From: Paracoccaceae bacterium
GTDB taxonomy: Bacteria > Pseudomonadota > Alphaproteobacteria > Rhodobacterales > Rhodobacteraceae
Assembly: GCA_965243215.1 (NCBI GenBank)
Contig: CBDEUJ010000005.1
Location: 936,546 to 1,000,545 of the forward strand
Length of the DNA stretch: 64,000 nucleotides
Direction: 5' to 3'
Below, piece by piece: positions 8,184 to 28,366 of this stretch (position 1 is its first letter; every line of letters begins with the position of its first letter). The notes under the pieces are model-generated. The model was not told where the DNA came from. It did not search any database and saw nothing but the letters and a program-made list of their open reading frames with translations. The translations under genes were made by a program, and so were the position numbers.

Positions 8184-9637
8184 GCGCTGACGATCGCCTC
8201 GGCCTCGATTTCGACCAGGTAGTCGCCGGCCAGATCGTTGACCGCGACCAATGTATTGGCGGGCTTCAAGGCCCCGAAAACGCGGCCGTGGGCTGCGCTG
8301 ACGGCTTCGGTGTCGGCGATGTCTGTCAGGTAGATGCGGGTGCGCACGACATCTTCAGCCGTTCCGCCAAGGACGCGGACGGCACCGATGATCTTGTCGA
8401 TGACGTAGGTCGTCTGTGCGGCCGCGTCGCCCGGCGCGACGACGCGGTCGGCCCCCGCCGTCGCCGTGGTCCCTGAGACCAGGATGCGTTCTCCCACGCG
8501 CCGGGCCCGGCAATAGCCCGCAATGGTCTCCCATTTGCTGCCCGACATCGCGCGACGCACCTCGGGACGTCCCGGCATCTTGTCGGTGTCGTAGGCGGGA
8601 GGGACAGTGCCCAGGTGGTGGCTCAGGTCGCCGCCGGCCGTAAGGAACGGCGGCGTTCGGTATTCGTCGCCGCAGTCGCCGGGAATCGATGCGGTGCCGG
8701 CGAATGCCCTGGCCAGGACCGCGCGGTCCCCGTCATCGAGGGAAAAGCCGAAGAGCTGGGCGTTGTCGGCGCGATGATCGCTTTCGCCAGGCCGGACGCC
8801 TATGATGACGCCAGCGACATGGGACTGTTCCAGGACCCAGCGCGTCGCGACGTTTGTCACCGAGACACCGTGCTTCGCTGCAACCTCGGCGGCGGCGGAG
8901 AGAACCGCCTGATAGGCCTCCCAGCCGCCGGCGGCCTCGATGAAGCGGCGGTATTTCATCTTGCTCCAGTCCGGAACGTCCTCCGGCTCTGGCCGACCCA
9001 GCCATCTCTCGGACAGAAAGCCGCCACAGACGGTGCCATAGGCAAGCAGGTGCACGCCATGGCGCAAGCAGGTCTCAGCCAGCGGCCCGGTGAAACGACG
9101 GTCCAGCAGCGAGCAGACGACCTGGTTGGTCCGGACGGGAACGCCGTCGGCCAGCGCCAGATGCAGATGAGCGGCGTCAAAATTGGTCACGCCGATCTCG
9201 CGGATCAATCCCTCCTCGCGCAGCGTCACGAGCTCATGCAATGCGTCGAGCCAGGCGGGGTGCTCGAAGCTCCACCAGTGGAATTGCAGGAGATCCACAC
9301 GCGCGATCCCGAGCCGGTCCAGCCTCTCCTGCACGCCGGCGCGCACGACTGCCGGCGTCATCGGACCAGGCGGCGGGCACCACTTGGTGAAGGCCAGCGC
9401 ATCGGGAAAGCGCTGCAGGAGACGCGAGGCGATGATCTCGGCGCTGCCGTAGTGATCCGCCATGTCGAACGTGTCAAAACCGCTCTCGGCATAGCGGGCA
9501 AGGTGATCGGCGGCCTTGTCAGGGGCCAGGTCCGTGCCACGGCGCTCCATGTCCGCGACTTGCCAAAGGCCGGTCAGGATGCGGCTGATGGCCAATTCGC
9601 TGGTCAGGCGGAACCTGTCAGGCGTTGCGATGGTCAT
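8180..9637 (-). CDS. aldo/keto reductase fused to a C-terminal RidA/YjgF domain
   Basis: The N-terminal ~330 aa is AKR-like (GFDTFDMADHYGSAE, VDLLQFHWW, IGVTNF). The C-terminal ~125 aa (ILVSGTTA...TTYVIDKI...VVRTRIYLTD...TLVAV..L....LVEIEAEAI) is a RidA fold. It is one uninterrupted ORF. Confidence 0.8.
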   Translation of the reverse strand: MTIATPDRFRLTSELAISRILTGLWQVADMERRGTDLAPDKAADHLARYAESGFDTFDMADHYGSAEIIASRLLQRFPDALAFTKWCPPPGPMTPAVVRAGVQERLDRLGIARVDLLQFHWWSFEHPAWLDALHELVTLREEGLIREIGVTNFDAAHLHLALADGVPVRTNQVVCSLLDRRFTGPLAETCLRHGVHLLAYGTVCGGFLSERWLGRPEPEDVPDWSKMKYRRFIEAAGGWEAYQAVLSAAAEVAAKHGVSVTNVATRWVLEQSHVAGVIIGVRPGESDHRADNAQLFGFSLDDGDRAVLARAFAGTASIPGDCGDEYRTPPFLTAGGDLSHHLGTVPPAYDTDKMPGRPEVRRAMSGSKWETIAGYCRARRVGERILVSGTTATAGADRVVAPGDAAAQTTYVIDKIIGAVRVLGGTAEDVVRTRIYLTDIADTEAVSAAHGRVFGALKPANTLVAVNDLAGDYLVEIEAEAIVSA

Positions 9638-10052
9638 GGCCGGTCTCCAGCGCCGACTTGACGATGTCCAGCTCGACCCGATGGGCGGCGATCAGGCTTT
9701 CCCATCGCGCGTCGTCCATTTCGGCGGTGCGAAAGACCGTCAATGCCAGCCCGGTGCCCAGGCCGTCGCCGAAGACGGCCTCGGGCGTCACCCGCCCGAA
9801 GATGCGTGGAGACAGGCTGCCGGGCGTGGTGCCGACATGGTAGTCGATCAGCCGCTGTTCAGGATGAGCCTCGACCCGCACATAGGTCTCTGCACCGTCC
9901 TTTATGGAGGTTCCGCGCACCAGCCCGGCGCTGTCGATCTCGGTGCGCCACGTACCGAACGACCAGAGGCTCATGTTCGCCGGATCTGCCATGAAGGCGA
10001 AGACCTCGTCCGCGGAACGCCTGACGCGAATGAAGGCCGTGTCACAGCTCAT
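9618..10052 (-). CDS. SRPBCC (START/polyketide-cyclase-like) family protein
   Basis: Trimmed to MSCDTAFIRVRRSADEVFAFMADPANMSLWS, a typical SRPBCC N-terminus. The ATGA overlap with the upstream RidA stop at 10049 supports this start. Confidence 0.6.
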   Translation of the reverse strand: MSCDTAFIRVRRSADEVFAFMADPANMSLWSFGTWRTEIDSAGLVRGTSIKDGAETYVRVEAHPEQRLIDYHVGTTPGSLSPRIFGRVTPEAVFGDGLGTGLALTVFRTAEMDDARWESLIAAHRVELDIVKSALETGHDHRNA

Positions 10053-10453
10053 GCAGGCGTGCCAGAGCCGCGGATCGCCTCGACCTCGATCTCCACCCGC
10101 GCGCCGGGCACGACGAGCGGCGCGCAAACCGTGGTGTTTGCCGGGCGGGCAAAGCCGATGCGTCCCTTCAGGACGGCCGCGATCGCCGTCACGTCGTCTG
10201 CGTCCGTCAGGTAGACGCGCACCCGGACAATGTCATGCAGGCCGGAGCCTGCCTCGACCAGCGCGGCCTCGATGGTGTCGAGCGCCGTGGCGGCCTGCGC
10301 CTCCGCTCCCTCGGGCATCTCGCCGGTCGCGAATTCGACGCCAACGGTGCCTGATACGAAAATCCGGTCATCCACGACGACGGCACGGGCATACCCGGCC
10401 ATCTCTTCATAGACCGACCCGCTGAACACATGGCTGCGCTTGCCGGCCATCGC
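10049..10453 (-). CDS. RidA family protein (reactive enamine/imine deaminase)
   Basis: Trimmed to MAGKRSHVFSG; IFVSGTVG...DIVRVRVYLTD...VEIEVEAI are RidA hallmarks. Confidence 0.8.
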   Translation of the reverse strand, partial: AMAGKRSHVFSGSVYEEMAGYARAVVVDDRIFVSGTVGVEFATGEMPEGAEAQAATALDTIEAALVEAGSGLHDIVRVRVYLTDADDVTAIAAVLKGRIGFARPANTTVCAPLVVPGARVEIEVEAIRGSGTPA

Positions 10454-10510
10454 GACCTCCCAGTGCAGGAAAGGGGGGACGCCGCGACGCCCCCGGAACA
10501 TGCCAGCCGA

Positions 10511-11773
10511 CTATTCGTCGAGCATCTTGATCAGTTCGGCGACCTCCGCGGTGCTCAAGTATCCGGTCTCGACATTCTCGTCGCCGTCGAGCTTCCACGT
10601 CATCTTCGGCGCCTGCACGTCGCCATTCCTGTCGAATGACAAGGCACCTGTGGCGCCGACGTAACGGATCGTCTTGCCTTCGGCCAAAAGCTCCTTGGCG
10701 CGCGCGATGCCTTCAGGACCAGGATAGACCTCGGTCCCGTCCGGCGAAGTGACAAGGCGGATATGGTCGCGAATGTTGTCGCCGGTGATGTCGCCGGACG
10801 CCTCCATTGCCAGGAGAACCACCGTCACCGCATCATAGACAGAGTGCAGGCCAGGACCGTTCGGCGGACTGTCGAACCGCGCCTGGAACATCTCGTTGAA
10901 CGAGTCGACCGAAGGCAGGCGCGGCTGGGCGCTGTCGTAGCCCTGCAGGTTCTGCAGGAACTGCGGACCCACGGCCTGAAAGTAGTCATCCGACCGCAGC
11001 GAGTTGTTCACGATCAGGTTGTCGGTGCCGCCCAGCGCCAGCCATTCACGGGTGATCGTGGCGCCGTCCACCGGGAAGGCAACGAGGTAGAGCGAATCCG
11101 GATTGCCCTCCAGCGCCTTCGTGACCTCGGCACGATAGCTTTGCTGGCTCTCGTTATAGGCCACCATCGAGGTGATCGAACCGCCAAGCTTGGCGATGTC
11201 CTGCTCGAATCGCTTGGCCAGACCGACGCCGAAGTCGGTGTTGACGTAGATGACTGCGGTGTTCTTGAAACCGCTGTCGACGGTCAGCTTTGCGCCAATG
11301 GCGGACTGGCTGCGGTTTGTGGCGTAGGTGCGGAACCAGTAGCCCTCGGTCTTGCCCTCCTCGGCGAGCGCCGTGAAGCTCTCGGACGACGAGCAGCAGG
11401 AAACCTGCACGACCCTGGACGGCACGGCGACCGACGTCAGGACCGGCAGGCTGACGCCCGATGACACGGCACCGATCAGCGCCTGCACGCCGTCGAGGTC
11501 GACGAGGCTCTTCGCGGCGTCCACGCCGACCGCCGACTGGCCCTGCGTGTCGCGCAGCACGTACTCAACCGGACAGCCAAGAACGCCGCCGGCGTCGTTG
11601 AATTGCTCGACCGCAAAAAGACCGGTCTCGGCGATCCGCTCGCCCACCTGCCCCATCGGTCCGCTGACAGGCAAGATCGCGCCAAGCTTGACCGGGCAGT
11701 CCACGGCGTGGGCCGAAGAACCAATCCCGATGAGTGCGGCGGCCACGGCCGCCAATCCAAATTTGTGCAACAT
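10511..11773 (-). CDS. ABC transporter substrate-binding protein, Liv (branched-chain/aromatic amino acid) type
   Basis: Trimmed to MLHKFGLAAVAAALIGIGSSAHA (signal peptide; cat at 11771-11773). KLGAILPVSGPMGQVGE is typical of type I periplasmic binding proteins. Confidence 0.85.
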   Translation of the reverse strand: MLHKFGLAAVAAALIGIGSSAHAVDCPVKLGAILPVSGPMGQVGERIAETGLFAVEQFNDAGGVLGCPVEYVLRDTQGQSAVGVDAAKSLVDLDGVQALIGAVSSGVSLPVLTSVAVPSRVVQVSCCSSSESFTALAEEGKTEGYWFRTYATNRSQSAIGAKLTVDSGFKNTAVIYVNTDFGVGLAKRFEQDIAKLGGSITSMVAYNESQQSYRAEVTKALEGNPDSLYLVAFPVDGATITREWLALGGTDNLIVNNSLRSDDYFQAVGPQFLQNLQGYDSAQPRLPSVDSFNEMFQARFDSPPNGPGLHSVYDAVTVVLLAMEASGDITGDNIRDHIRLVTSPDGTEVYPGPEGIARAKELLAEGKTIRYVGATGALSFDRNGDVQAPKMTWKLDGDENVETGYLSTAEVAELIKMLDE

Positions 11774-11887
11774 GCGCACCTCCATGCATATGAACCGGGC
11801 TTTCGCGCCGGCCCGAAGCGTCGCCTTGGGCGACCCCATTTTCGCTGTACCGCAAATCAAAGCCCGTCTTCGCGGCTTTGTCCACCA

Positions 11888-12835
11888 TTACGACCTTGCG
11901 TGGGGCGAAACTTGCAGTTCCTCCCCGATCAGGCCGCGCGGGCGGATCAGCAGCGTAACGACCAGGATCAGGCCGATCAGCACGGCTTGCATCGCGCCGC
12001 CCTGAGCCTGGATCTCCGAAGGGACCACGCGCGAAATGACGAATCCGCTCATGGTCCAGACGCCCCAGACGATCAGCGCGCCAAGAAGCGCTCCACGGTT
12101 GTTGGCGCTGCCGCCGACAATCAGCATGGTCCAGATCTGAAACGTCACGATCGGCAGGAAGTCCCAAGGGCTGACATAGCCGATGAAGGAGACATAGAGA
12201 GCGCCCGAGAGCCCCATGATCATGCAGCCGAGCACGAAGGCCTCAAGGCGCACCCGCTCCGGCGACTTGCCAAGGCTGGCGGCGGCGACATCGTCCTCGC
12301 GGATCGCCTTCAGCATCCGGCCCCATGGCGATTTCACGATCCGCTCAAGGGCGGCGAAGGTCAGCCCGACCACGACCAGGACCACGAGCAGGTAGAGCGC
12401 GTTCTGTGCCAGCGGCCCGTCGGCCCAGGCCTTGGACGGGTTCGGAATGCCAATCAGGCCGAGCGTGCCGCCGGTCAGGTACTCCCAGTTCAGGCAGACG
12501 AGCTGGATGGTCACCGCGATCCCGAAAGTGGCCACCGCCAGGTATTCGTGCCGGAGCTTCAACGTAGCGAGGCCGACGACGACAGCCCCTATGCCGGAAG
12601 CTATCATCGCGCCGATCAGCCCGACGGCAAAGGGCAGTTCGAATCCGCCGAAGACCGCGTCCCGGGCCGGGCCGGTCAGGATAGCCATCGTGTAGGCGCC
12701 GATCGCGGTGAACCCCGCGACACCGGCGTTGAAGAGTCCGGTGTAGCCCCATTGCAGGTTGAGCCCGAGCACGGCGACCCCGAAGATCAGCGACAGGATC
12801 AGGAAGAAGACGATGTAGGAGACCAGCCCGATCAT
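11888..12835 (-). CDS. branched-chain amino acid ABC transporter permease (LivM-like)
   Basis: The track's 658-aa ORF is an Arg/Pro-rich over-extension. The real start is MIGLVSYIVFFLILSLIFGVAVLGLNLQWGYTGLFNAG (cat at 12833-12835), with a 4-nt overlap onto the upstream permease stop. Confidence 0.85.
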   Translation of the reverse strand: MIGLVSYIVFFLILSLIFGVAVLGLNLQWGYTGLFNAGVAGFTAIGAYTMAILTGPARDAVFGGFELPFAVGLIGAMIASGIGAVVVGLATLKLRHEYLAVATFGIAVTIQLVCLNWEYLTGGTLGLIGIPNPSKAWADGPLAQNALYLLVVLVVVGLTFAALERIVKSPWGRMLKAIREDDVAAASLGKSPERVRLEAFVLGCMIMGLSGALYVSFIGYVSPWDFLPIVTFQIWTMLIVGGSANNRGALLGALIVWGVWTMSGFVISRVVPSEIQAQGGAMQAVLIGLILVVTLLIRPRGLIGEELQVSPHARS

Positions 12836-23031: not shown

Positions 23032-23373
23032 TCACGAAGAGAGTCGTGGCGCACCTTGTGCCGGCAGGGTCATGCCGAGCTGGTGCAGCAGAAGCTCGTG
23101 CTCCTTCCTTGGCTGGGTGTAGCGCGGCAGGACGAGATGCCGGCCGTCGGTTGTGGGCAGATGCACGTCCACCATCTGGATCGTGCCGAATGCCTCGATG
23201 ATGGCGCGCGGGGTCAGCCCGCCGGCACGCGGGCGGGCGATGTTCTTCAGCGTCACCAGCAGGCAGTACGCGATGAACGAGACGAAGATGTGCGCTTCGA
23301 TCCGTTCCTCGACCTGGTGGAAGACGGGACGGACCGCGAGGTCGTGCTTCAATTCCTTGAACGCCTGCTCGAT
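23032..23373 (-). pseudogene. C-terminal fragment (~113 aa) of the IS4/IS1634-like DDE transposase
   Basis: IEQAFKELKHDLAVRPVFHQVEERIEAHIFVSFIAYCLLVTLK...LTPRAIIEAFGTIQMVDVHLPTTDG is the conserved C-terminal block of this transposase type. It is in frame with the N-terminal fragment once 23374..28402 is removed. Confidence 0.8.
23368..23373. repeat. CTCGAT, left junction copy flanking the serine-recombinase element
   Basis: Direct reading; an identical hexamer lies at 28397-28402. Confidence 0.6.
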
Positions 23374-23400
23374 ATAGCAAACAAAATGCCTACAAAACGT

Positions 23401-23428
23401 TTACAGGGACGTTGCAGCCCCATATACT
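23401..23428 (+). promoter_or_regulatory. sigma70-like promoter TTACAG-N16-TATACT in the left arm of the recombinase element
   Basis: Direct reading. It is oriented toward the recombinase gene but is now separated from it by the IS1595 element. Confidence 0.35.
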
Positions 23429-23439
23429 GGCCCACGAAA

Positions 23440-23447
23440 CCTTGGTT
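23440..23447. repeat. CCTTGGTT(G), left copy of the IS1595 target-site duplication
   Basis: The identical 8-9 nt string is at 26116-26123(4), immediately outside both IRs. Confidence 0.8.
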
Positions 23448-23473
23448 GGGGAATTATATACTTGCCTAACCAT
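23448..23473. repeat. IS1595 left inverted repeat
   Basis: GGGGAATTATATACTTGCCTAACCAT. Its complement matches ATGGTTAGGCAAGTATATAAGCCC(C) at 26092-26115, with a 20-nt perfect core and one indel. Confidence 0.85.
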
Positions 23474-23512
23474 GCGTAGTTGGCTAGAGTGATTCGTGAA
23501 GGGAGAATCGCA

Positions 23513-24478
23513 ATGCAGAAAGCGCCGGGAAAATCGCATCGCGAAGGCATCAGCCTCATCGAGCTTTTCGATATGTTCCCAGACGAGGAAACCGCCGCAA
23601 GGTGGTTCGAGGACGTGCGTTGGCCGGATGAGAAGAAACGCACCTGCCCGCATTGCGGCAGCTTCAACACCATGCGCAAGGAGAACCGCAAGCCCATGCC
23701 GTTCCGTTGCCGAGACTGCCGGGCGTTCTTCTCGGTCCGCCAAGGTTCCGTCATGGAACATTCGCGCATTCCCCTGCGCAAGTGGGCAATCGCGATCTAC
23801 TTGAACGCAACGAGCCTGAAAGGCGTCAGCAGCATGAAATTGCACCGCGACTTGAAGATCACGCAAAAGTCGGCTTGGTTCATGGCGCATCGCCTGCGAG
23901 AAGCCTTCGGCAGCGAAGAAGGATTGTTCGTCGGCCCAGTGGAAGCGGACGAAACCTACATCGGCGGGAAGCGAAAAAACATGAGTCTGTCAAAGCGGAA
24001 GGAAATGAAGGATTCAGGACGCGGGCCTGTCGGGAAAGAAGCCGTGGTAGGCGTCAAGGATCGCGACACCGGCAAGGTCCGGGCCAAGGTTGTCCCCGCA
24101 ACAGACGCGCCGCATGTTGCGGGCTTTGTGGCTTCGCAGACGAAGGACGGCGCGAAGGTCTACACTGACGAGGCGAAAGCCTACAACGCGCTCAAGCCGT
24201 TTTACGACCACGAAAGCGTCAATCACTCGGTTTCCGAATACGTGCGGGAACAAGCGCACACAAACGGAATCGAGTCGTTTTGGGCCATGCTCAAGCGCGG
24301 GTATCAGGGCACTTTTCATCACATGAGCCCGCAGCACCTGCACCGCTACGTCAACGAGTTTGCCGGACGGCACAACATCCGAAACGCTGACACCATCAAA
24401 CAGATGCAGGACATCGTTGCCGGAATGATCGGCAAGCGGCTGATGTATAGCGACCTTGTTGCAGGGTCGGAAAAATGA
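23513..24478 (+). CDS. IS1595-family transposase
   Basis: Trimmed to the ATG at 23513, preceded by gaagggag. CPHCGS...FRCRDCRAFF is the Zn ribbon, and the DDE region includes VEADETYIGG, VYTDEAKAY and HTNGIESFWAMLKRG, typical of the IS1595/ISXO2 domain. Confidence 0.85.
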   Translation: MQKAPGKSHREGISLIELFDMFPDEETAARWFEDVRWPDEKKRTCPHCGSFNTMRKENRKPMPFRCRDCRAFFSVRQGSVMEHSRIPLRKWAIAIYLNATSLKGVSSMKLHRDLKITQKSAWFMAHRLREAFGSEEGLFVGPVEADETYIGGKRKNMSLSKRKEMKDSGRGPVGKEAVVGVKDRDTGKVRAKVVPATDAPHVAGFVASQTKDGAKVYTDEAKAYNALKPFYDHESVNHSVSEYVREQAHTNGIESFWAMLKRGYQGTFHHMSPQHLHRYVNEFAGRHNIRNADTIKQMQDIVAGMIGKRLMYSDLVAGSEK

Positions 24479-24687
24479 CTAGAAAGGCCATGATTCCCCC
24501 GGTGGTCAATGATCCGGTTGCCCTAGCCAGATCATTGTTCCCGAAAGAGGTTGACACGGATGTTAAGCTAGAAAAGGGACAGCCCGACAGCCCGACAGCC
24601 CGACAGCCCGACAGCCCGACAGCCCGACAGCCCGACAGCCCGACAGCCCGACAGCCCGACAGCCCGGGAAGAAGCGCAGAGGCGTAA
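24475..24687 (+). CDS. upstream reading frame through the octanucleotide repeat; probable N-terminal segment of the methyltransferase, currently out of frame
   Basis: Its ATG overlaps the transposase stop (ATGA). It reads MTRKAMIPPVV...KLEKG(QPDSPTAR)3QPDSP and stops at the TAA at 24685-24687, 27 nt before the methylase ATG. Confidence 0.5.
   Translation: MTRKAMIPPVVNDPVALARSLFPKEVDTDVKLEKGQPDSPTARQPDSPTARQPDSPTARQPDSPGRSAEA
24578..24665. repeat. perfect tandem repeat (GACAGCCC)x11
   Basis: Counted base by base: eleven exact 8-nt units, 88 nt. The unit length is not a multiple of 3. Confidence 0.95.
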
Positions 24688-24713
24688 TTCACGAAGGTGA
24701 CTGTCTCGAAAAG

Positions 24714-25397
24714 ATGCGGGAAATGCCGGATGGATTGATTCGTCTGGTAGTCACGTCCCCGCCTTACAACATCAAGAACAGCAGCGGCAACGGCCTCAAG
24801 AACGGCAACGGCGGCAAGTGGCCGAAAGCCGCATTGCAAGGCGGCTATTCCGACCATGACGACTGCATGCCGCATGATGAATACGTGCAATGGCAACGCG
24901 ATTGCCTGCAGGAAATGGTGCGCCTTCTCCGACCTGACGGAGCCATTTTCTACAATCACAAGTGGCGGGTTCAGCGTGGTCTCTTGCAGGACCGTTCGGA
25001 CATAGTTGACGGCTTTCCAGTCCGGCAAATTTTGATCTGGGAGCGGGCTGGAGGAATCAACTTCAATCCCGGCTATTTTCTCCCGAACTATGAGGTCATC
25101 TACCTGATTGCGAAGCCTGACTTCAAACTCGCACCCAAGGCGAATGCGCTTGGATGCGTATGGCGCATCAATCAGGAAAGCAACAATCCGCACCCCGCCC
25201 CATTCCCCGTCGAACTCGCCGCGCGATGCATTGATTCTGTCGGCGGCGGCCCTGTGTTGGACCCGTTCATGGGATCCGGCACAACGGCAATTGCGGCCGA
25301 GAATGCTGGCATTGATTGGATCGGCATAGAAAAGTCTCCCGCCTATATTGCGATGGCAAACAAGCGCATAGGCCGTGTGTTGGGTCGTGCACTGTGA
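24714..25397 (+). CDS. beta-class DNA methyltransferase (SPPY motif IV; N4-cytosine or N6-adenine), 5'-truncated as annotated from the first in-frame ATG
   Basis: LIRLVVTSPPYNI is motif IV and VLDPFMGSGTTAIAAENAG motif I, in the beta-class order. The same frame is open upstream of the ATG and encodes GKKRRGVIHEGDCLEK, the conserved GDCLE N-terminal block, but has no start codon before the stops at 24552/24564. Confidence 0.8.
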   Translation: MREMPDGLIRLVVTSPPYNIKNSSGNGLKNGNGGKWPKAALQGGYSDHDDCMPHDEYVQWQRDCLQEMVRLLRPDGAIFYNHKWRVQRGLLQDRSDIVDGFPVRQILIWERAGGINFNPGYFLPNYEVIYLIAKPDFKLAPKANALGCVWRINQESNNPHPAPFPVELAARCIDSVGGGPVLDPFMGSGTTAIAAENAGIDWIGIEKSPAYIAMANKRIGRVLGRAL

Positions 25398-25402
25398 TTG
25401 CC

Positions 25403-26086
25403 ATGACAGACGCAGAATTGCACGAGCGTCTCCGCCGTGTCCTAAAGCGGGGATGGCTGAACATTCCAGACTTCCCCGGTTATGGCGGAACAGGTGCGCC
25501 TGGCAAGATTCTCGAAGAGCTGCTGGGGGTGGATGGCGGGAACCTGGACACTCCAGACGCCGGACGATGGGAAATCAAGTTTCATTCTCAGAACTCCTTG
25601 CTGACGCTGTTCCATCTGGAAGGCGAGCCGAAGGGCCACATGCATCACATGGTGCGAGAGTTTGGCTGGCCTGACAGCAAGGGACGGACCAGTTTTCGGC
25701 ACACCATTCATCAAGGTAATTCGAGCATAGGATTCTACGTAGCCAACGAGAGCGGCAGAATCACCGTCCGGCATCCCGACGTTGCCGACATGGTGTGGCC
25801 ATACTGGACGCATGACAAACTGATCAACGCCTTTGCTTCCAAGTTTCGTCGGCTGATTGTCGTGAAAGGCCGCAGGAAAGGCGACCATGTACGTTATGAT
25901 CTTGCGCACCTGTATTGGGAACCAAAGATCACGATGTTCATTGAAGCTGTCCAGCGCGGGATCATTGCCATTGACTTCGATGCCCGAACGAACAATGGGC
26001 GCGGTCTGCGAAATCACGGAACCAAGTTTCGCGTCAAGTATGACGACCTGCGCCATCTCTACGGAAATCGGAAGCGATTTGACTAG
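25403..26086 (+). CDS. Type II restriction endonuclease, MvaI/BcnI-like (MutH-related PD-ExK)
   Basis: Trimmed to the ATG at 25403 (MTDAELHERL). KRGWLNIP...GAPGKILEELLGV...TPDAGRWEIKF...SLLTLFH and the C-terminal GIIAIDFDAR...GLRNHGTKFRV..DDLRHLY align by eye with the BcnI sequence as recalled (GYLSVP..GQILERQFGV..LGDLGEFELKG..NLTLFH..GVLVMDL..GPHDRGPHLRI..LDKLY). Confidence 0.65.
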   Translation: MTDAELHERLRRVLKRGWLNIPDFPGYGGTGAPGKILEELLGVDGGNLDTPDAGRWEIKFHSQNSLLTLFHLEGEPKGHMHHMVREFGWPDSKGRTSFRHTIHQGNSSIGFYVANESGRITVRHPDVADMVWPYWTHDKLINAFASKFRRLIVVKGRRKGDHVRYDLAHLYWEPKITMFIEAVQRGIIAIDFDARTNNGRGLRNHGTKFRVKYDDLRHLYGNRKRFD

Positions 26087-26091
26087 ACCCA

Positions 26092-26115
26092 ATGGTTAGG
26101 CAAGTATATAAGCCC
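26092..26115. repeat. IS1595 right inverted repeat
   Basis: ATGGTTAGGCAAGTATATAAGCCC; see the left IR. Confidence 0.85.
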
Positions 26116-26123
26116 CCTTGGTT
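26116..26123. repeat. CCTTGGTT(G), right copy of the IS1595 target-site duplication
   Basis: The identical string is at 23440-23447(8). Confidence 0.8.
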
Positions 26124-26257
26124 GCCCTCAATCGGTGGTTTCGGAACCATGAACGAGCAGAACCCCTTCCTGACCCAACCTGCCCCGCATCGCGATCGGG
26201 TGGTGCGGCGGCTGACCCAGATCATTCTGAGGCATCTTCAGATACAGGATCGCGGCG

Positions 26258-28366
26258 ATGACACCCGGCCTGACAGGGACCGGCCTTTGCGAAGGCCGGG
26301 TTCAAAGCAGCCACGTCCGTCGCAAGGCGATTGTCTACGTCCGACAGTCGACCCCCGGACAGGTTGAGCGCAACTGCGAGTCAACCTTGCTGCAATACGG
26401 TCTGACGGACCGCGCGCGCCAGCTCGGCTGGGCCGAGGCAAGCACCGAGGTCATCGACGACGATCTTGGCTGTTCCGCCCGCCGCTCGGGAACCCGGAAG
26501 GGGTTCATGACCCTTGCTGCCGAGGTCGGCCTGGGCCTTGTCGGGATCGTCATCAGCAGCGAGGTCAGCCGCCTGGCCCGGAACCTGTCCGAGTGGGGCC
26601 GCCTGTTGGAACTTTGCGATCTCACTGATACGCTGATCGCCGACACCGAGTCCCTTTACGACCTGCGGCGTCCGAACGACCGTTTCCTGCTGGGGATCCG
26701 TGGAACCGTGAGCGAGGCCGAGATCCATACCCTGCGCCTGCGCATGCACGCCGGCCGCGAGGCGAAGGCGGCGCGAGGCGAACTGGCGGTTGCGCTTCCG
26801 CGTGGCTACGTGCGCGACGCCTCGGGGCGCACGGTGCTTGATCCCGATGTCAGCGTGCAGGCGCGGATCCGCGGCATCTTCCGGACGTTTGCCCGCCACG
26901 GCAGCCTGAGCGCGACGCTGCGTGCGCTCGCCGCGGACGGCCAGGGGGTGCCCGTGCGGCGAGCGAATGGGCCTCGGCGGGGCGAGCTCGAGTGGTCGCC
27001 GCCGAGCTCTGCGGCGCTTCATGGCATGCTGACCAGCCCGGTCTACGCGGGCGCCTTCGTCTGGGGCCGTGCCGCCGGCGGCGCCAGTGCGGGACTGCCG
27101 GTCGAGAAGCGCTGGCGCCACCTGCTGAAGGACCAGCATCCGGCGTACATCACCTGGGAGGAATTCGAGCTCACCCAGCGTCAGCTTGCGAACAACCGCT
27201 GGCCGACCCGGGGCCTGGGAGGCGGGCTCCTGTCGGGCCTGCTGTTTTGCGGCCGCTGCGGCCAGGGCATGACGGTGAGCTACCGCGATGGCGGCGGCGA
27301 AGGGTTGCGCTACAGTTGCCGCGGCAAGAGGGACTACGGCGGCTCGACCTGCCAGTCCCTTTCCAGTCCCGGCCTGGAGCGCTTTGCCTCGGAGGCCGTT
27401 GTCAACGCGTTGTCGCCGGCATCGGTGGCGCTTTCGGTGGCGGCGCTGCAACAGGCGGAGGCGGACCGGACGGCGGAGCATGGCGAGTGGCACCTGCGGA
27501 TTGCGCGGGCCGAACGGGATGCCGCCGATGCGCATCGGGCCTACCGTGCGGTGGATCCCGCCAACCGCCTGGTCGCGCAGACGCTCGAGGACGACTGGGA
27601 AGCGGCCCTGGCGGAATGCAGGCAGCTGAAGGACGCCTACCAGCGGCATTGCGGCCGTGCTCCGGTTGCATTGTCGGCGCAGGAACGCAGGGCCATCGAG
27701 GACGCGACGTCGGGGATCGCGGCCCTTTGGAACGATGGCGTCCTGACGAAATCCGAGAGGGCGGAGCTCATGCGGCTCATGATCGAGCGCGTGACGGTCG
27801 AGGTGGTCGGCGACAGCGAGCGGGTCAAGGTTGACATGCAGTGGTACGGCGGCGCGCGCAGCCGTGCCGAAATCCGCCGTCCTGTTCGTTACGTGGAGCA
27901 GCTGAGTTACTATCACGACCTCTGTGCCCGGATCGCCGCGCTGAAGACGGACGGCAGGAGCTACGGCGAGATCGCGGACGTCCTGAACGAGACGGGCTGG
28001 GAGCCCGCGCGCAAGGACGCCTTCACCGAAGCGTCCGTCGCGAACATTGCCCGAAAGTCCGGGCTCGGCATGACGGGAAGGCGCAGGCGTCCGCCGCCGG
28101 CACGCCGGGGGCGTGACGAATGGCTGATCGACGACCTGGCCAGGAAGACGGCCGTCCCGAAGTCGACGCTCCATGTCTGGATACGCAAGGGCAAGCTCGA
28201 GGCGCGCAAGGAGGAGCAGCGCGGAGAGGGCGGCGCAAGAAGGCGCTGGCTCGTCCGTGCGGACCAGGCCACGCGCGACGCCATTCGCGCGTGGCGCGAA
28301 AGGCCGGCACGGTTCAGGTCAAGGCAGGGGATACCGGTCTTTCCATCCCGTCCGGTTCAACATTGA
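26258..28366 (+). CDS. large serine recombinase (resolvase catalytic domain + recombinase domain + Zn ribbon + C-terminal HTH-like extension)
   Basis: RKAIVYVRQSTPGQV holds the catalytic serine context and SEVSRLARN the resolvase motif. FCGRCGQGMTV...YSCRG is the Zn ribbon, followed by a coiled-coil segment and C-terminal SYGEIADVLNETGW and LARKTAVPKSTLHVWIRKGKL. Confidence 0.85.
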   Translation: MTPGLTGTGLCEGRVQSSHVRRKAIVYVRQSTPGQVERNCESTLLQYGLTDRARQLGWAEASTEVIDDDLGCSARRSGTRKGFMTLAAEVGLGLVGIVISSEVSRLARNLSEWGRLLELCDLTDTLIADTESLYDLRRPNDRFLLGIRGTVSEAEIHTLRLRMHAGREAKAARGELAVALPRGYVRDASGRTVLDPDVSVQARIRGIFRTFARHGSLSATLRALAADGQGVPVRRANGPRRGELEWSPPSSAALHGMLTSPVYAGAFVWGRAAGGASAGLPVEKRWRHLLKDQHPAYITWEEFELTQRQLANNRWPTRGLGGGLLSGLLFCGRCGQGMTVSYRDGGGEGLRYSCRGKRDYGGSTCQSLSSPGLERFASEAVVNALSPASVALSVAALQQAEADRTAEHGEWHLRIARAERDAADAHRAYRAVDPANRLVAQTLEDDWEAALAECRQLKDAYQRHCGRAPVALSAQERRAIEDATSGIAALWNDGVLTKSERAELMRLMIERVTVEVVGDSERVKVDMQWYGGARSRAEIRRPVRYVEQLSYYHDLCARIAALKTDGRSYGEIADVLNETGWEPARKDAFTEASVANIARKSGLGMTGRRRRPPPARRGRDEWLIDDLARKTAVPKSTLHVWIRKGKLEARKEEQRGEGGARRRWLVRADQATRDAIRAWRERPARFRSRQGIPVFPSRPVQH

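Follow-up and report, generated by a model that had tools for sequence, protein, structure and literature searches.

The window analysed here, a 64,000-nucleotide stretch of contig CBDEUJ010000005.1 from a Paracoccaceae bacterium, carries an IS1595-family transporter insertion sequence (tIS) whose passengers are genes for a DNA methyltransferase (M) and an MvaI/BcnI-family restriction endonuclease (R). The reading that we consider likely, taken as a whole, is that of an autonomous tIS with a predicted Type IIP restriction-modification (R-M) system as cargo, in which the genes are coupled, the pair is gated by an octanucleotide repeat and the cargo forms an exchangeable cassette. The features on which it rests are listed first; positions are those of the window, and related loci are referred to by L numbers.

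Boundaries, genes and mobility of the element

23441..23448: left copy of the target site duplication (TSD), CTTGGTTG, read from the sequence with its boundary set by L007 and L003
23449-26116: IS1595-family tIS, 2,668 bp, containing transposase, methyltransferase and endonuclease genes
23449..23473, plus strand: left terminal inverted repeat (IRL), GGGAATTATATACTTGCCTAACCAT
23513..24478, plus strand: IS1595-family transposase with N-terminal zinc ribbon and DDE domain, 321 aa from its ATG (open frame from TTG 23480)
24475..24687, plus strand: leader open reading frame (ORF) of 70 codons, the true 5' end of the methylase gene, with its stop TAA at 24685-24687
24567..25397, plus strand: methyltransferase core frame, beta-class N4-cytosine type, first in-frame start ATG 24714
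24578..24666, plus strand: perfect octanucleotide tandem repeat, GACAGCCC x11.1, putative phase-variation tract (Tandem Repeats Finder, 100% matches, score 178)
25394..26086, plus strand: MvaI/BcnI-family restriction endonuclease, probable start GTG 25394 (ATG 25403 gives 227 aa)
26092..26116, minus strand: right terminal inverted repeat (IRR), reverse complement GGGGCTTATATACTTGCCTAACCAT
26117..26124: right copy of the TSD, CTTGGTTG

The ends of the element, 5'-GGGAATTATATAC...GTATATAAGCCCC-3', were set by comparison with other copies. In L007 and L003, perfect 8-bp duplications adjoin the same GGG... terminus as in the window, so that the insertion sequence (IS) spans 23449-26116 and the TSD is the 8-mer CTTGGTTG. 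The longest inverted repeat (IR) of the region covers 26 nt (23448-23473 and 26092-26117, complementary at 24 of 26 positions); the terminal repeats themselves are 25 nt, short and imperfect, with a perfect 20-nt core, TTATATACTTGCCTAACCAT, that occurs exactly twice in the 64 kb and in none of 100 shuffles. The generic terminus GGGRNTTATATAC is present in the window only at IRL and IRR, which leaves a single IR pair, and a GGGxxTTATATAC terminus is kept across the element family. The original prediction, made from the window alone, had found the IR pair and its perfect core correctly and had also seen the duplication, but as a 9-mer, CCTTGGTTG, which is too long in that the last C of the right repeat was counted in.

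The transposase matches the Pfam profiles DDE_Tnp_IS1595 (PF12762; 4e-41, profile positions 4-153 of 153) and Zn_ribbon_IS1595 (PF12760; 1e-7). Short terminal IRs at both ends, an 8-bp target duplication and an ISXO2/IS1595-type DDE transposase with an N-terminal zinc ribbon together place the element in IS1595, and the position of M and R between the transposase and IRR, inside the IRs of a single IS, makes it a tIS.

The endonuclease scores 92.4 bits (6e-26) against the Pfam MvaI_BcnI profile, for which the cut-off is 25. In a phmmer search of the PDB it matched R.MvaI (2oa9, 2e-11) and R.BcnI (2odh, 1e-6) over nearly its full length, with NLDTPDAGRWEIK aligned to the catalytic NLDAPDFHDIEIK of MvaI and the PD...EIK motif matched. 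Among 30 endonuclease homologues E57 and K59 are invariant, and D49 and D52 are at least 90% conserved. A score above the curated threshold and the PD...(D/E)xK alignment thus assign the protein to the family that had been proposed for it; the enzyme would be of the monomeric type. The partner methylases of MvaI and BcnI, including M.MvaI and M.BcnIB, are of the N4-methylcytosine (m4C) type. By its sequence the methylase of the window is likewise an N4-cytosine enzyme: it contains an N6_N4_Mtase domain (PF01555, 7e-36), its motifs stand in the beta-class order, with TSPPY (motif IV) N-terminal and DPFMGSGTT (motif I, FMGSG) near the C-terminus, and the best PDB match of its core is 8s9m/8s9n, annotated as 'DNA cytosine-N4 methyltransferase' (1e-33). 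The SPPY motif and the 8s9m match are consistent with the m4C partners of MvaI and BcnI. Membership of the N6_N4_Mtase family had been anticipated; the start then given for the gene, 24666, proved to be a GGG codon.

The three genes are co-directional between the IRs and their junctions are tight. The transposase stop overlaps ATG 24475 (ATGA, 24475-24478) and the methylase stop overlaps GTG 25394 (GTGA, 25394-25397). In most loci of relatives that lack the repeat, the transposase stop and the start of M share 4 nt (ATGA or GTGA); the M/R overlap is 4 nt in 40 of 58 distinct junctions and 1 nt in 5 of 58. These relatives also share a conserved methylase leader of about 45 aa, ...IPMxMDELLxAAVxxVP...WLNKVHCGDC. 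GTG 25394 is the most likely endonuclease start given the GTGA overlap, as in the 230-aa homologues P0001-P0003, so that R probably begins there and not at ATG 25403; the overlap of transposase stop and ATG had been noted before, and the ATG then taken as the endonuclease start, 5 nt after the methylase stop, is probably not the start. No Shine-Dalgarno (SD)-like motif was seen before R in the repeat-bearing clade. From the stop/start overlaps, translation of M, and then of R, is probably coupled to that of the preceding gene, and the junctions suggest a translationally coupled chain from transposase through M to R. Programmed -1 frameshifting at GGAAAAATGA, which would produce a transposase-methylase fusion, was considered and dropped, as there is no canonical slippery heptamer.

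Evidence for mobility comes from other copies. An IR-core scan of 185,579 species genomes gave six loci, all in metagenome-assembled genomes, and an exact-protein look-up gave two contigs; the identical transposase protein occurs on two contigs other than that of the window. Exact-protein look-ups of homologue P0003 and of the 70-aa leader ORF gave no match. The same element, at 99.1-100% identity, is present at L007 (ENA ERZ26051807, a 926-kb contig) and at L004/L008 (CBDEUZ010000006). The flanks of the three copies are mutually unrelated, the unit they share is 2,668 bp and ends exactly at the IRs, and the L007 copy is bracketed by the perfect duplication AAAATAAG. The GC content of the element is 56%, against 65% in the window flanks. 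The IR core also flanks other cargo at L003 and L005. At L087 (1618-4210) a related tIS interrupts an MmeI-family Type IIG gene, and in-silico excision of the element together with one duplication copy restores an open frame of 477 codons across the junction, so that here one R-M system has knocked out another. In plasmids of PLSDB, a megablast search with the element gave no match, and tblastn with the endonuclease found only distant MvaI/BcnI genes (25-31% identity) with no obvious IS context.

The architecture extends well beyond these copies. An alignment of the 30 endonuclease homologues was used to search JGI metagenomes and IMG/VR, giving 73 loci, among them 29 distinct ones in which 2.3 kb or more of sequence precedes the endonuclease gene. 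An IS1595 transposase lies directly upstream on the same strand in 22 of these 29, down to 41% endonuclease identity, and the right IR is retained in two of the seven loci without a transposase. Homologues P0004, P0010, P0012 and P0016 led to four more genome loci, and in all four the transposase is again upstream on the strand of the endonuclease gene. GGGxxTTATATAC termini bracket transposase-M-R units of 2.5-2.8 kb, with perfect, mostly AT-rich 8-bp duplications in 9 of 18 distinct elements that have both ends, in addition to L087, L088, L089, L090 and the window element. Perfect 8-mers flank L003, L007, L009, L010, L026, L046, L053, L057, L060, L083 and L087-L090. The transposase-M-R order was found in marine, soil, sludge, sponge-symbiont and viral-contig data. 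An R-M vehicle made of a single IS had been called unusual; within this clade it is not rare, and it is the predominant context of the R-M lineage in our sample.

On this comparison of copies it is very probable that the element is an IS1595 tIS with R-M cargo and moves as one unit. The DDE transposase would move the whole 2.7-kb unit and generate the 8-bp target duplications. The central proposal of the original prediction, an IS1595-family vehicle with an MvaI/BcnI-type R-M pair as cargo, is therefore upheld at the three places where it could have failed: the endonuclease belongs to a restriction enzyme family, the IR/TSD pair recurs elsewhere, and the passengers are part of the mobile unit, the whole transposase-M-R block being enclosed by IRs and perfect 8-bp duplications in at least 14 distinct elements.

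The octanucleotide repeat and competing readings

The perfect octanucleotide tract at 24578-24666, of which the original prediction made no mention, lies in the 5' part of the methylase gene between ATG 24475 and the conserved core. The leader ORF from ATG 24475 runs through the repeat out of frame with the methylase core, and the core frame is closed upstream by TAA 24564 and offers no start codon before ATG 24714, which falls after the conserved VIHEGDC segment. With the core frame closed and the leader in another frame, the methylase is cut off from its start codon in this copy. The R-M pair had been described as complete: both genes are present in the element, but the methylase is shifted out of frame by the tract, so that the pair is not complete in the expressed sense.

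Copies of the element that are otherwise identical differ substantively only in the number of repeat units: the window has 11, L007 has 8 and L008 has 4. In the four-unit copy, a methylase of 288 aa (MTRKAMIPPVVNDPVALARSLFPKEVDTDVKLEKGQPDSPTARQPGKKRRGVIHEGDCLEK...) can be read without interruption from the ATG at the transposase stop. The frame is open only if the unit number is 1 modulo 3, so the 11-unit and 8-unit copies share the same out-of-frame state. Two marks of a gene made phase-variable by a simple sequence repeat (SSR) are present: a perfect tandem repeat in the coding region with a unit length not divisible by three, and alleles both in and out of frame among copies that otherwise agree. 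Relatives carry tracts of their own in the corresponding linker, which joins the leader to the GDC strand, and these tracts are 98-100% homogeneous with lineage-specific units:

L009: GACAGTCC, 14.6 copies
L010: GCCAGTCC, 3.1 copies
L011: ACAGCCCA, 11.6 copies
L016: CAAACCCA, at least 4.2 copies (contig end)
L087: GACACCCC, 5.8 copies
L088: GACAACCC, 20.6 copies
L090: GCAAGCCC, 26.6 copies

An 8-nt tract thus stands at one position in at least seven lineages and on two different backbones. The frame could be assigned in nine copies; L008 alone is in frame, seven show the +1 frame and L010 the remaining one. Both the M core (224-227 aa) and R (226-230 aa) are intact ORFs in all nine. In the seven +1-frame copies the leader ORF ends 0-27 nt before the conserved internal Met, and in L087 the leader TAA overlaps the internal ATG as TAATG. 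In close relatives that are free of the tract (L086 and L089), and in the distant clade, the methylase is in frame.

To picture the N-terminus we used an AlphaFold model of a long-form homologue, P0121 (mean pLDDT 80, 70 sequences). Its IIHEGDC segment, equivalent to VIHEGDC and nearly invariant in the methylase family, forms a core beta-strand upstream of the internal Met (pLDDT ~97), and the leader is modelled at low confidence and disordered but for one short helix. A product started at the internal Met would accordingly, in the model, lack a core strand, and our reading of the out-of-frame state is that it is off or much lowered. For the leader, an autoregulatory DNA-binding domain like that at the N-terminus of M.SsoII-type methylases was considered as well; it is unsupported, the P0121 model showing no folded domain there, and no fold search was run. 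Separately, a leader segment of about 20 aa, IPPV(V/I)NDPVALARSLFPK, is 86% identical between the window (24475-24545) and L003 (5650-5714), whose methylases are otherwise unrelated (27% identical); the leader follows the transposase backbone when the cargo differs.

Our proposal is that slipped-strand mispairing would add or drop 8-nt units and so move the methylase core in and out of frame with its sole upstream start. As R has no ribosome-binding site of its own, the tract would probably switch the whole R-M pair. The 11-unit copy of the window would then represent the out-of-frame state, to be turned on by the loss of one unit or the gain of two. We lean, with some reserve, towards the tract being a functional phase-variation switch that controls the R-M pair.

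Several points weigh against this reading. The 8 out-of-frame copies among 9 do not differ significantly from the two-thirds expected for random lengths, and the differences in unit number lie between assemblies and not within one population, so that reversible switching is something we infer. An out-of-frame M beside an intact R would be lethal unless R is coupled or the product from ATG 24714 suffices. Since the leader stops just before the internal Met in seven of nine copies, 'off' may mean low expression or a short isoform and not a null state. CCWGG occurs 216 times and CCSGG 287 times in the window, with no informative avoidance, and the specificity is therefore not inferable from these counts. 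Finally, the L004/L008 copy is not framed by a clean duplication, and related elements and solo IRs crowd around it.

The strongest of the alternatives, and still a somewhat unlikely one, accepts the element as real and sees in the tract an unstable low-complexity linker, with out-of-frame copies drifting to pseudogenes after insertion. The near-chance proportion of out-of-frame copies would fit such drift, as would the damaged transposases of L090 (241 aa plus fragments) and L009 (283 aa), and the encoded (QPDSPTAR)n is P/S/T-rich and linker-like, in line with the disordered leader of the model. Decay of this kind is difficult to reconcile with a tract whose length is the sole M lesion in all nine copies, the M core and R remaining intact across lineages that are 72-84% identical. 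The perfect homogeneity of the lineage-specific tracts likewise indicates ongoing expansion and contraction, not decay, and the 8-nt unit has been kept at a single position through all of the lineages and both backbones.

A second alternative holds that out of frame is not 'off': reinitiation at Met 24714 would yield a 227-aa methylase, the tract would toggle between long and short isoforms, and R-M would always be active. We regard this as unlikely. It draws on the seven copies that occupy the sole frame in which the leader stops 0-27 nt before the internal ATG, on the Pfam domain lying wholly in the short form, and on the protein database, where about 35 of the 120 best methylase homologues are called at 224-231 aa from the internal Met after GDCLE. 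Against it stand the core strand before that Met, with its nearly invariant sequence, and the solved m4C homologue 8s9m, which includes the VIHEGDC segment (alignment from query residue 6); no SD-like motif is evident before 24714. The 227-aa entries may themselves be gene-caller artefacts of the same frameshift. At least the short calls of L009 and L010 stem from out-of-frame repeat tracts, so that the frameshift may be common in databases. Hits with such short calls include P0125, P0142, P0145, P0153 and P0155.

Chance adjacency, in which an ordinary IS1595 lies beside a resident chromosomal R-M operon and the right 'IR' comes from a second partial IS in a composite or accidental arrangement, could appeal to the mobile-DNA patch around the element (23032-23352, an IS4-like remnant, and 26258-28366, a serine recombinase) and to the L004/L008 copy with its solo IRs and its lack of a clean duplication, but it is highly improbable and effectively refuted by a 2,668-bp unit, and nothing beyond it, common to three unrelated flanks at 99-100%, by perfect 8-bp duplications around transposase, M and R in many independent elements, and by a single IR pair in the window with the R stop codon 5 nt from IRR.

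Cassette exchange, other cargo and surroundings

Comparison of the tIS with its relatives shows different affinities along its length. Window positions 23449-24521 (IRL, transposase and the first ~15 leader codons) are 74-75% identical at the nucleotide level to L003 and L005. Both of these have the same IR core. L003 carries a BglII-family endonuclease and a different N6_N4 methylase that keeps the same leader, and L005 an HNH endonuclease and a C5 methylase. Positions 24572-26070 (tract, M and R) are instead 72-76% identical to the cargo of L009, L011, L087, L088 and L090, whose transposases share only about 41-45% protein identity with that of the window and whose IRs differ. By this comparison the window element is a mosaic, in which tract, M and R behave as an exchangeable cassette between deeply diverged IS1595 backbones.

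Other cargo is frequent. L008 includes a second complete tIS (9015-11990) with identical 28-nt IRs, the TSD AAAATGAG, a D12-class methylase and a NotI-family endonuclease. When IMG/VR was scanned with the transposase, more than 560 IS1595 relatives came up, of which the best 80 (L091-L170) were examined for cargo. In roughly 30 of these 80, cargo lies after the transposase and before IRR, and perfect duplications flank many of them. The cargo consists mostly of DNA methylases and nucleases and also includes PemK and SocA toxin-antitoxin, P63C, KilA-N, NADAR and PAPS-reductase genes. Counts among the best 80 were:

N6_N4_Mtase: 6
C5 DNA_methylase: 3
MvaI_BcnI: 3
Methylase_S: 2
D12 methylase: 1
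N6_Mtase: 1
RE_HaeIII: 1
Vsr: 1
HNH fusion: 1

Some neighbouring loci deserve mention. The region 6690-12100 of L008, which is on the contig of L004, is a pile-up of IS1595 transporters with phage-like genes in the flanks; in it are a gene that fuses a C5 methylase to a BsuBI/PstI endonuclease, with a solo IR (8922) behind it, and a further solo IR at 12060. At L088 (4506-7681) the neighbours of the related element are ParE, an N6_Mtase protein of 806 aa and a second IS1595 transposase; at L089 (4417-5059) they are PIN and RHH genes, and at L090 (4399-7693) cas9-cas1. These last three neighbourhoods may point to a preference for defence islands.

In the window, the genes around the element are chromosomal housekeeping genes plus the small mobile-DNA patch, which comprises:

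23032-23352, minus strand: transposase-like C-terminal remnant, IS4/IS1634-like by eye, no Pfam match
26258-28366, plus strand: large serine recombinase of 702 aa with Resolvase, Recombinase and Zn_ribbon_recom domains

An ATG reading outward from the right IR (ATGGTTAGG...; 26092-26367) opens ORFs into the flank, and in L004 (2887-4920) this outward ATG lengthens the annotated start of a neighbouring 677-aa methylase/endonuclease fusion. It is probably spurious and could create fusion starts. Just outside the left IR (23400-23428) there is a sigma-70-like TTTACA-17-TATACT (10/12) directed inward, and the left IR itself holds a TATA-rich, -10-like sequence, each of them a consensus match only. 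The promoter and terminator scan gave consensus-level matches only and was not used as evidence.

Relation to known systems and significance

The tIS was reportedly defined by ISfinder/TnCentral and by Siguier, Gagnevin and Chandler in 2009. It is an accepted category, stated to be restricted to the IS1595 and IS66 families (bioRxiv 10.1101/2021.05.26.445724). The concept is thus already established for IS1595, and our element extends the known kinds without forming a new category. It resembles other IS1595 tIS in its single DDE transposase with an N-terminal zinc ribbon, its short IRs, its 8-bp duplication and the placement of passengers inside the IRs. Unlike described tIS, it carries as cargo a full Type II R-M pair that is apparently chained in translation to the transposase, and its cargo slot is exchangeable between backbones and putatively gated by a repeat tract.

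IR-flanked R-M units with 8-bp duplications were described by Furuta, Abe and Kobayashi in 2010 (PMC2853133), who cite Siguier 2009 for R-M and solitary M genes flanked by IS elements. Their Neisseria gonorrhoeae unit (26-bp IRs, 8-bp TSD) is similar in that an R-M gene lies within imperfect IRs together with a COG3677 transposase-like gene (PMC2853133). That unit is a single case with a truncated Type IIG gene and a probably inactive transposase (PMC2853133), whereas the window transposase is intact, copies at 99-100% identity occur in three contexts, and the architecture extends over dozens of lineages. With the MvaI (CCWGG) and BcnI (CCSGG) systems the element shares the Pfam endonuclease family, the aligned PD...E-x-K motif and an SPPY, N4-cytosine-type methylase; it differs from them in the low similarity of its endonuclease (2e-11 and 1e-6), its IS-borne lineage and its methylase leader of about 45 aa.

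SSRs are well known to turn methylases of Type III, Type I and Type IIG systems on and off, and have only 'limited representation' in Type II (PMC13076061, a 2026 review). As in the phasevarions of Type III mod, Type I hsd and Type IIG cj0031, the repeat lies in the 5' coding region, its unit length is not divisible by three, the reading frame depends on how long the tract is, and tract length is all that distinguishes the copies. Most known phasevarions are 1-5-nt repeats that host-adapted pathogens carry in genes of Type III, Type I or Type IIG systems, unlike the 8-nt unit described here, which belongs to a system on a transposable element in environmental and symbiont genomes. The switched gene here would be the separate M of a classical M and R pair, which means that R must be silenced with it.

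A full-text literature search found no description of IS1595 elements carrying MvaI/BcnI-type systems, of a conserved overlapping chain of transposase, M and R, or of octanucleotide repeats within the methylase gene of a Type II system that has separate M and R genes. The R-M-carrying IS1595 group is widespread and apparently undescribed. What is added here is the evidence of recent mobility, the breadth of the conserved architecture, the exchange of cassettes and the out-of-frame methylase tract.

Movement of Type II R-M systems has so far been argued mostly from context, that is, from plasmids, prophages, long target duplications and a few IR-flanked units. The element described here is a compact autonomous vehicle with clear ends and recent copies in different genomes. 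Its swappable slot accommodates MvaI/BcnI-, BglII-, NotI-, HaeIII- and HNH-type enzymes as well as toxin-antitoxin genes. Type II R-M systems are known for post-segregational killing, and stabilisation by the R-M pair of the replicon in which the element lands, as first proposed from the window alone, is plausible by analogy.

If the 8-nt repeat is a true switch, it would address both the establishment of a transposing R-M pair and the cost of restriction to its host, and would bring classical two-gene Type II systems, environmental bacteria and the cargo of a transposable element within the reach of SSR phase variation. For the family, we consider the case evenly balanced that this IS1595 clade is a dedicated shuttle for Type II R-M and other addiction or defence genes, with transposase, methylase and endonuclease linked by overlaps of stop and start codons, and that in one of its subclades the octanucleotide repeat would make the pair phase-variable, a module lethal when unbalanced being carried silently and stochastically switched on.

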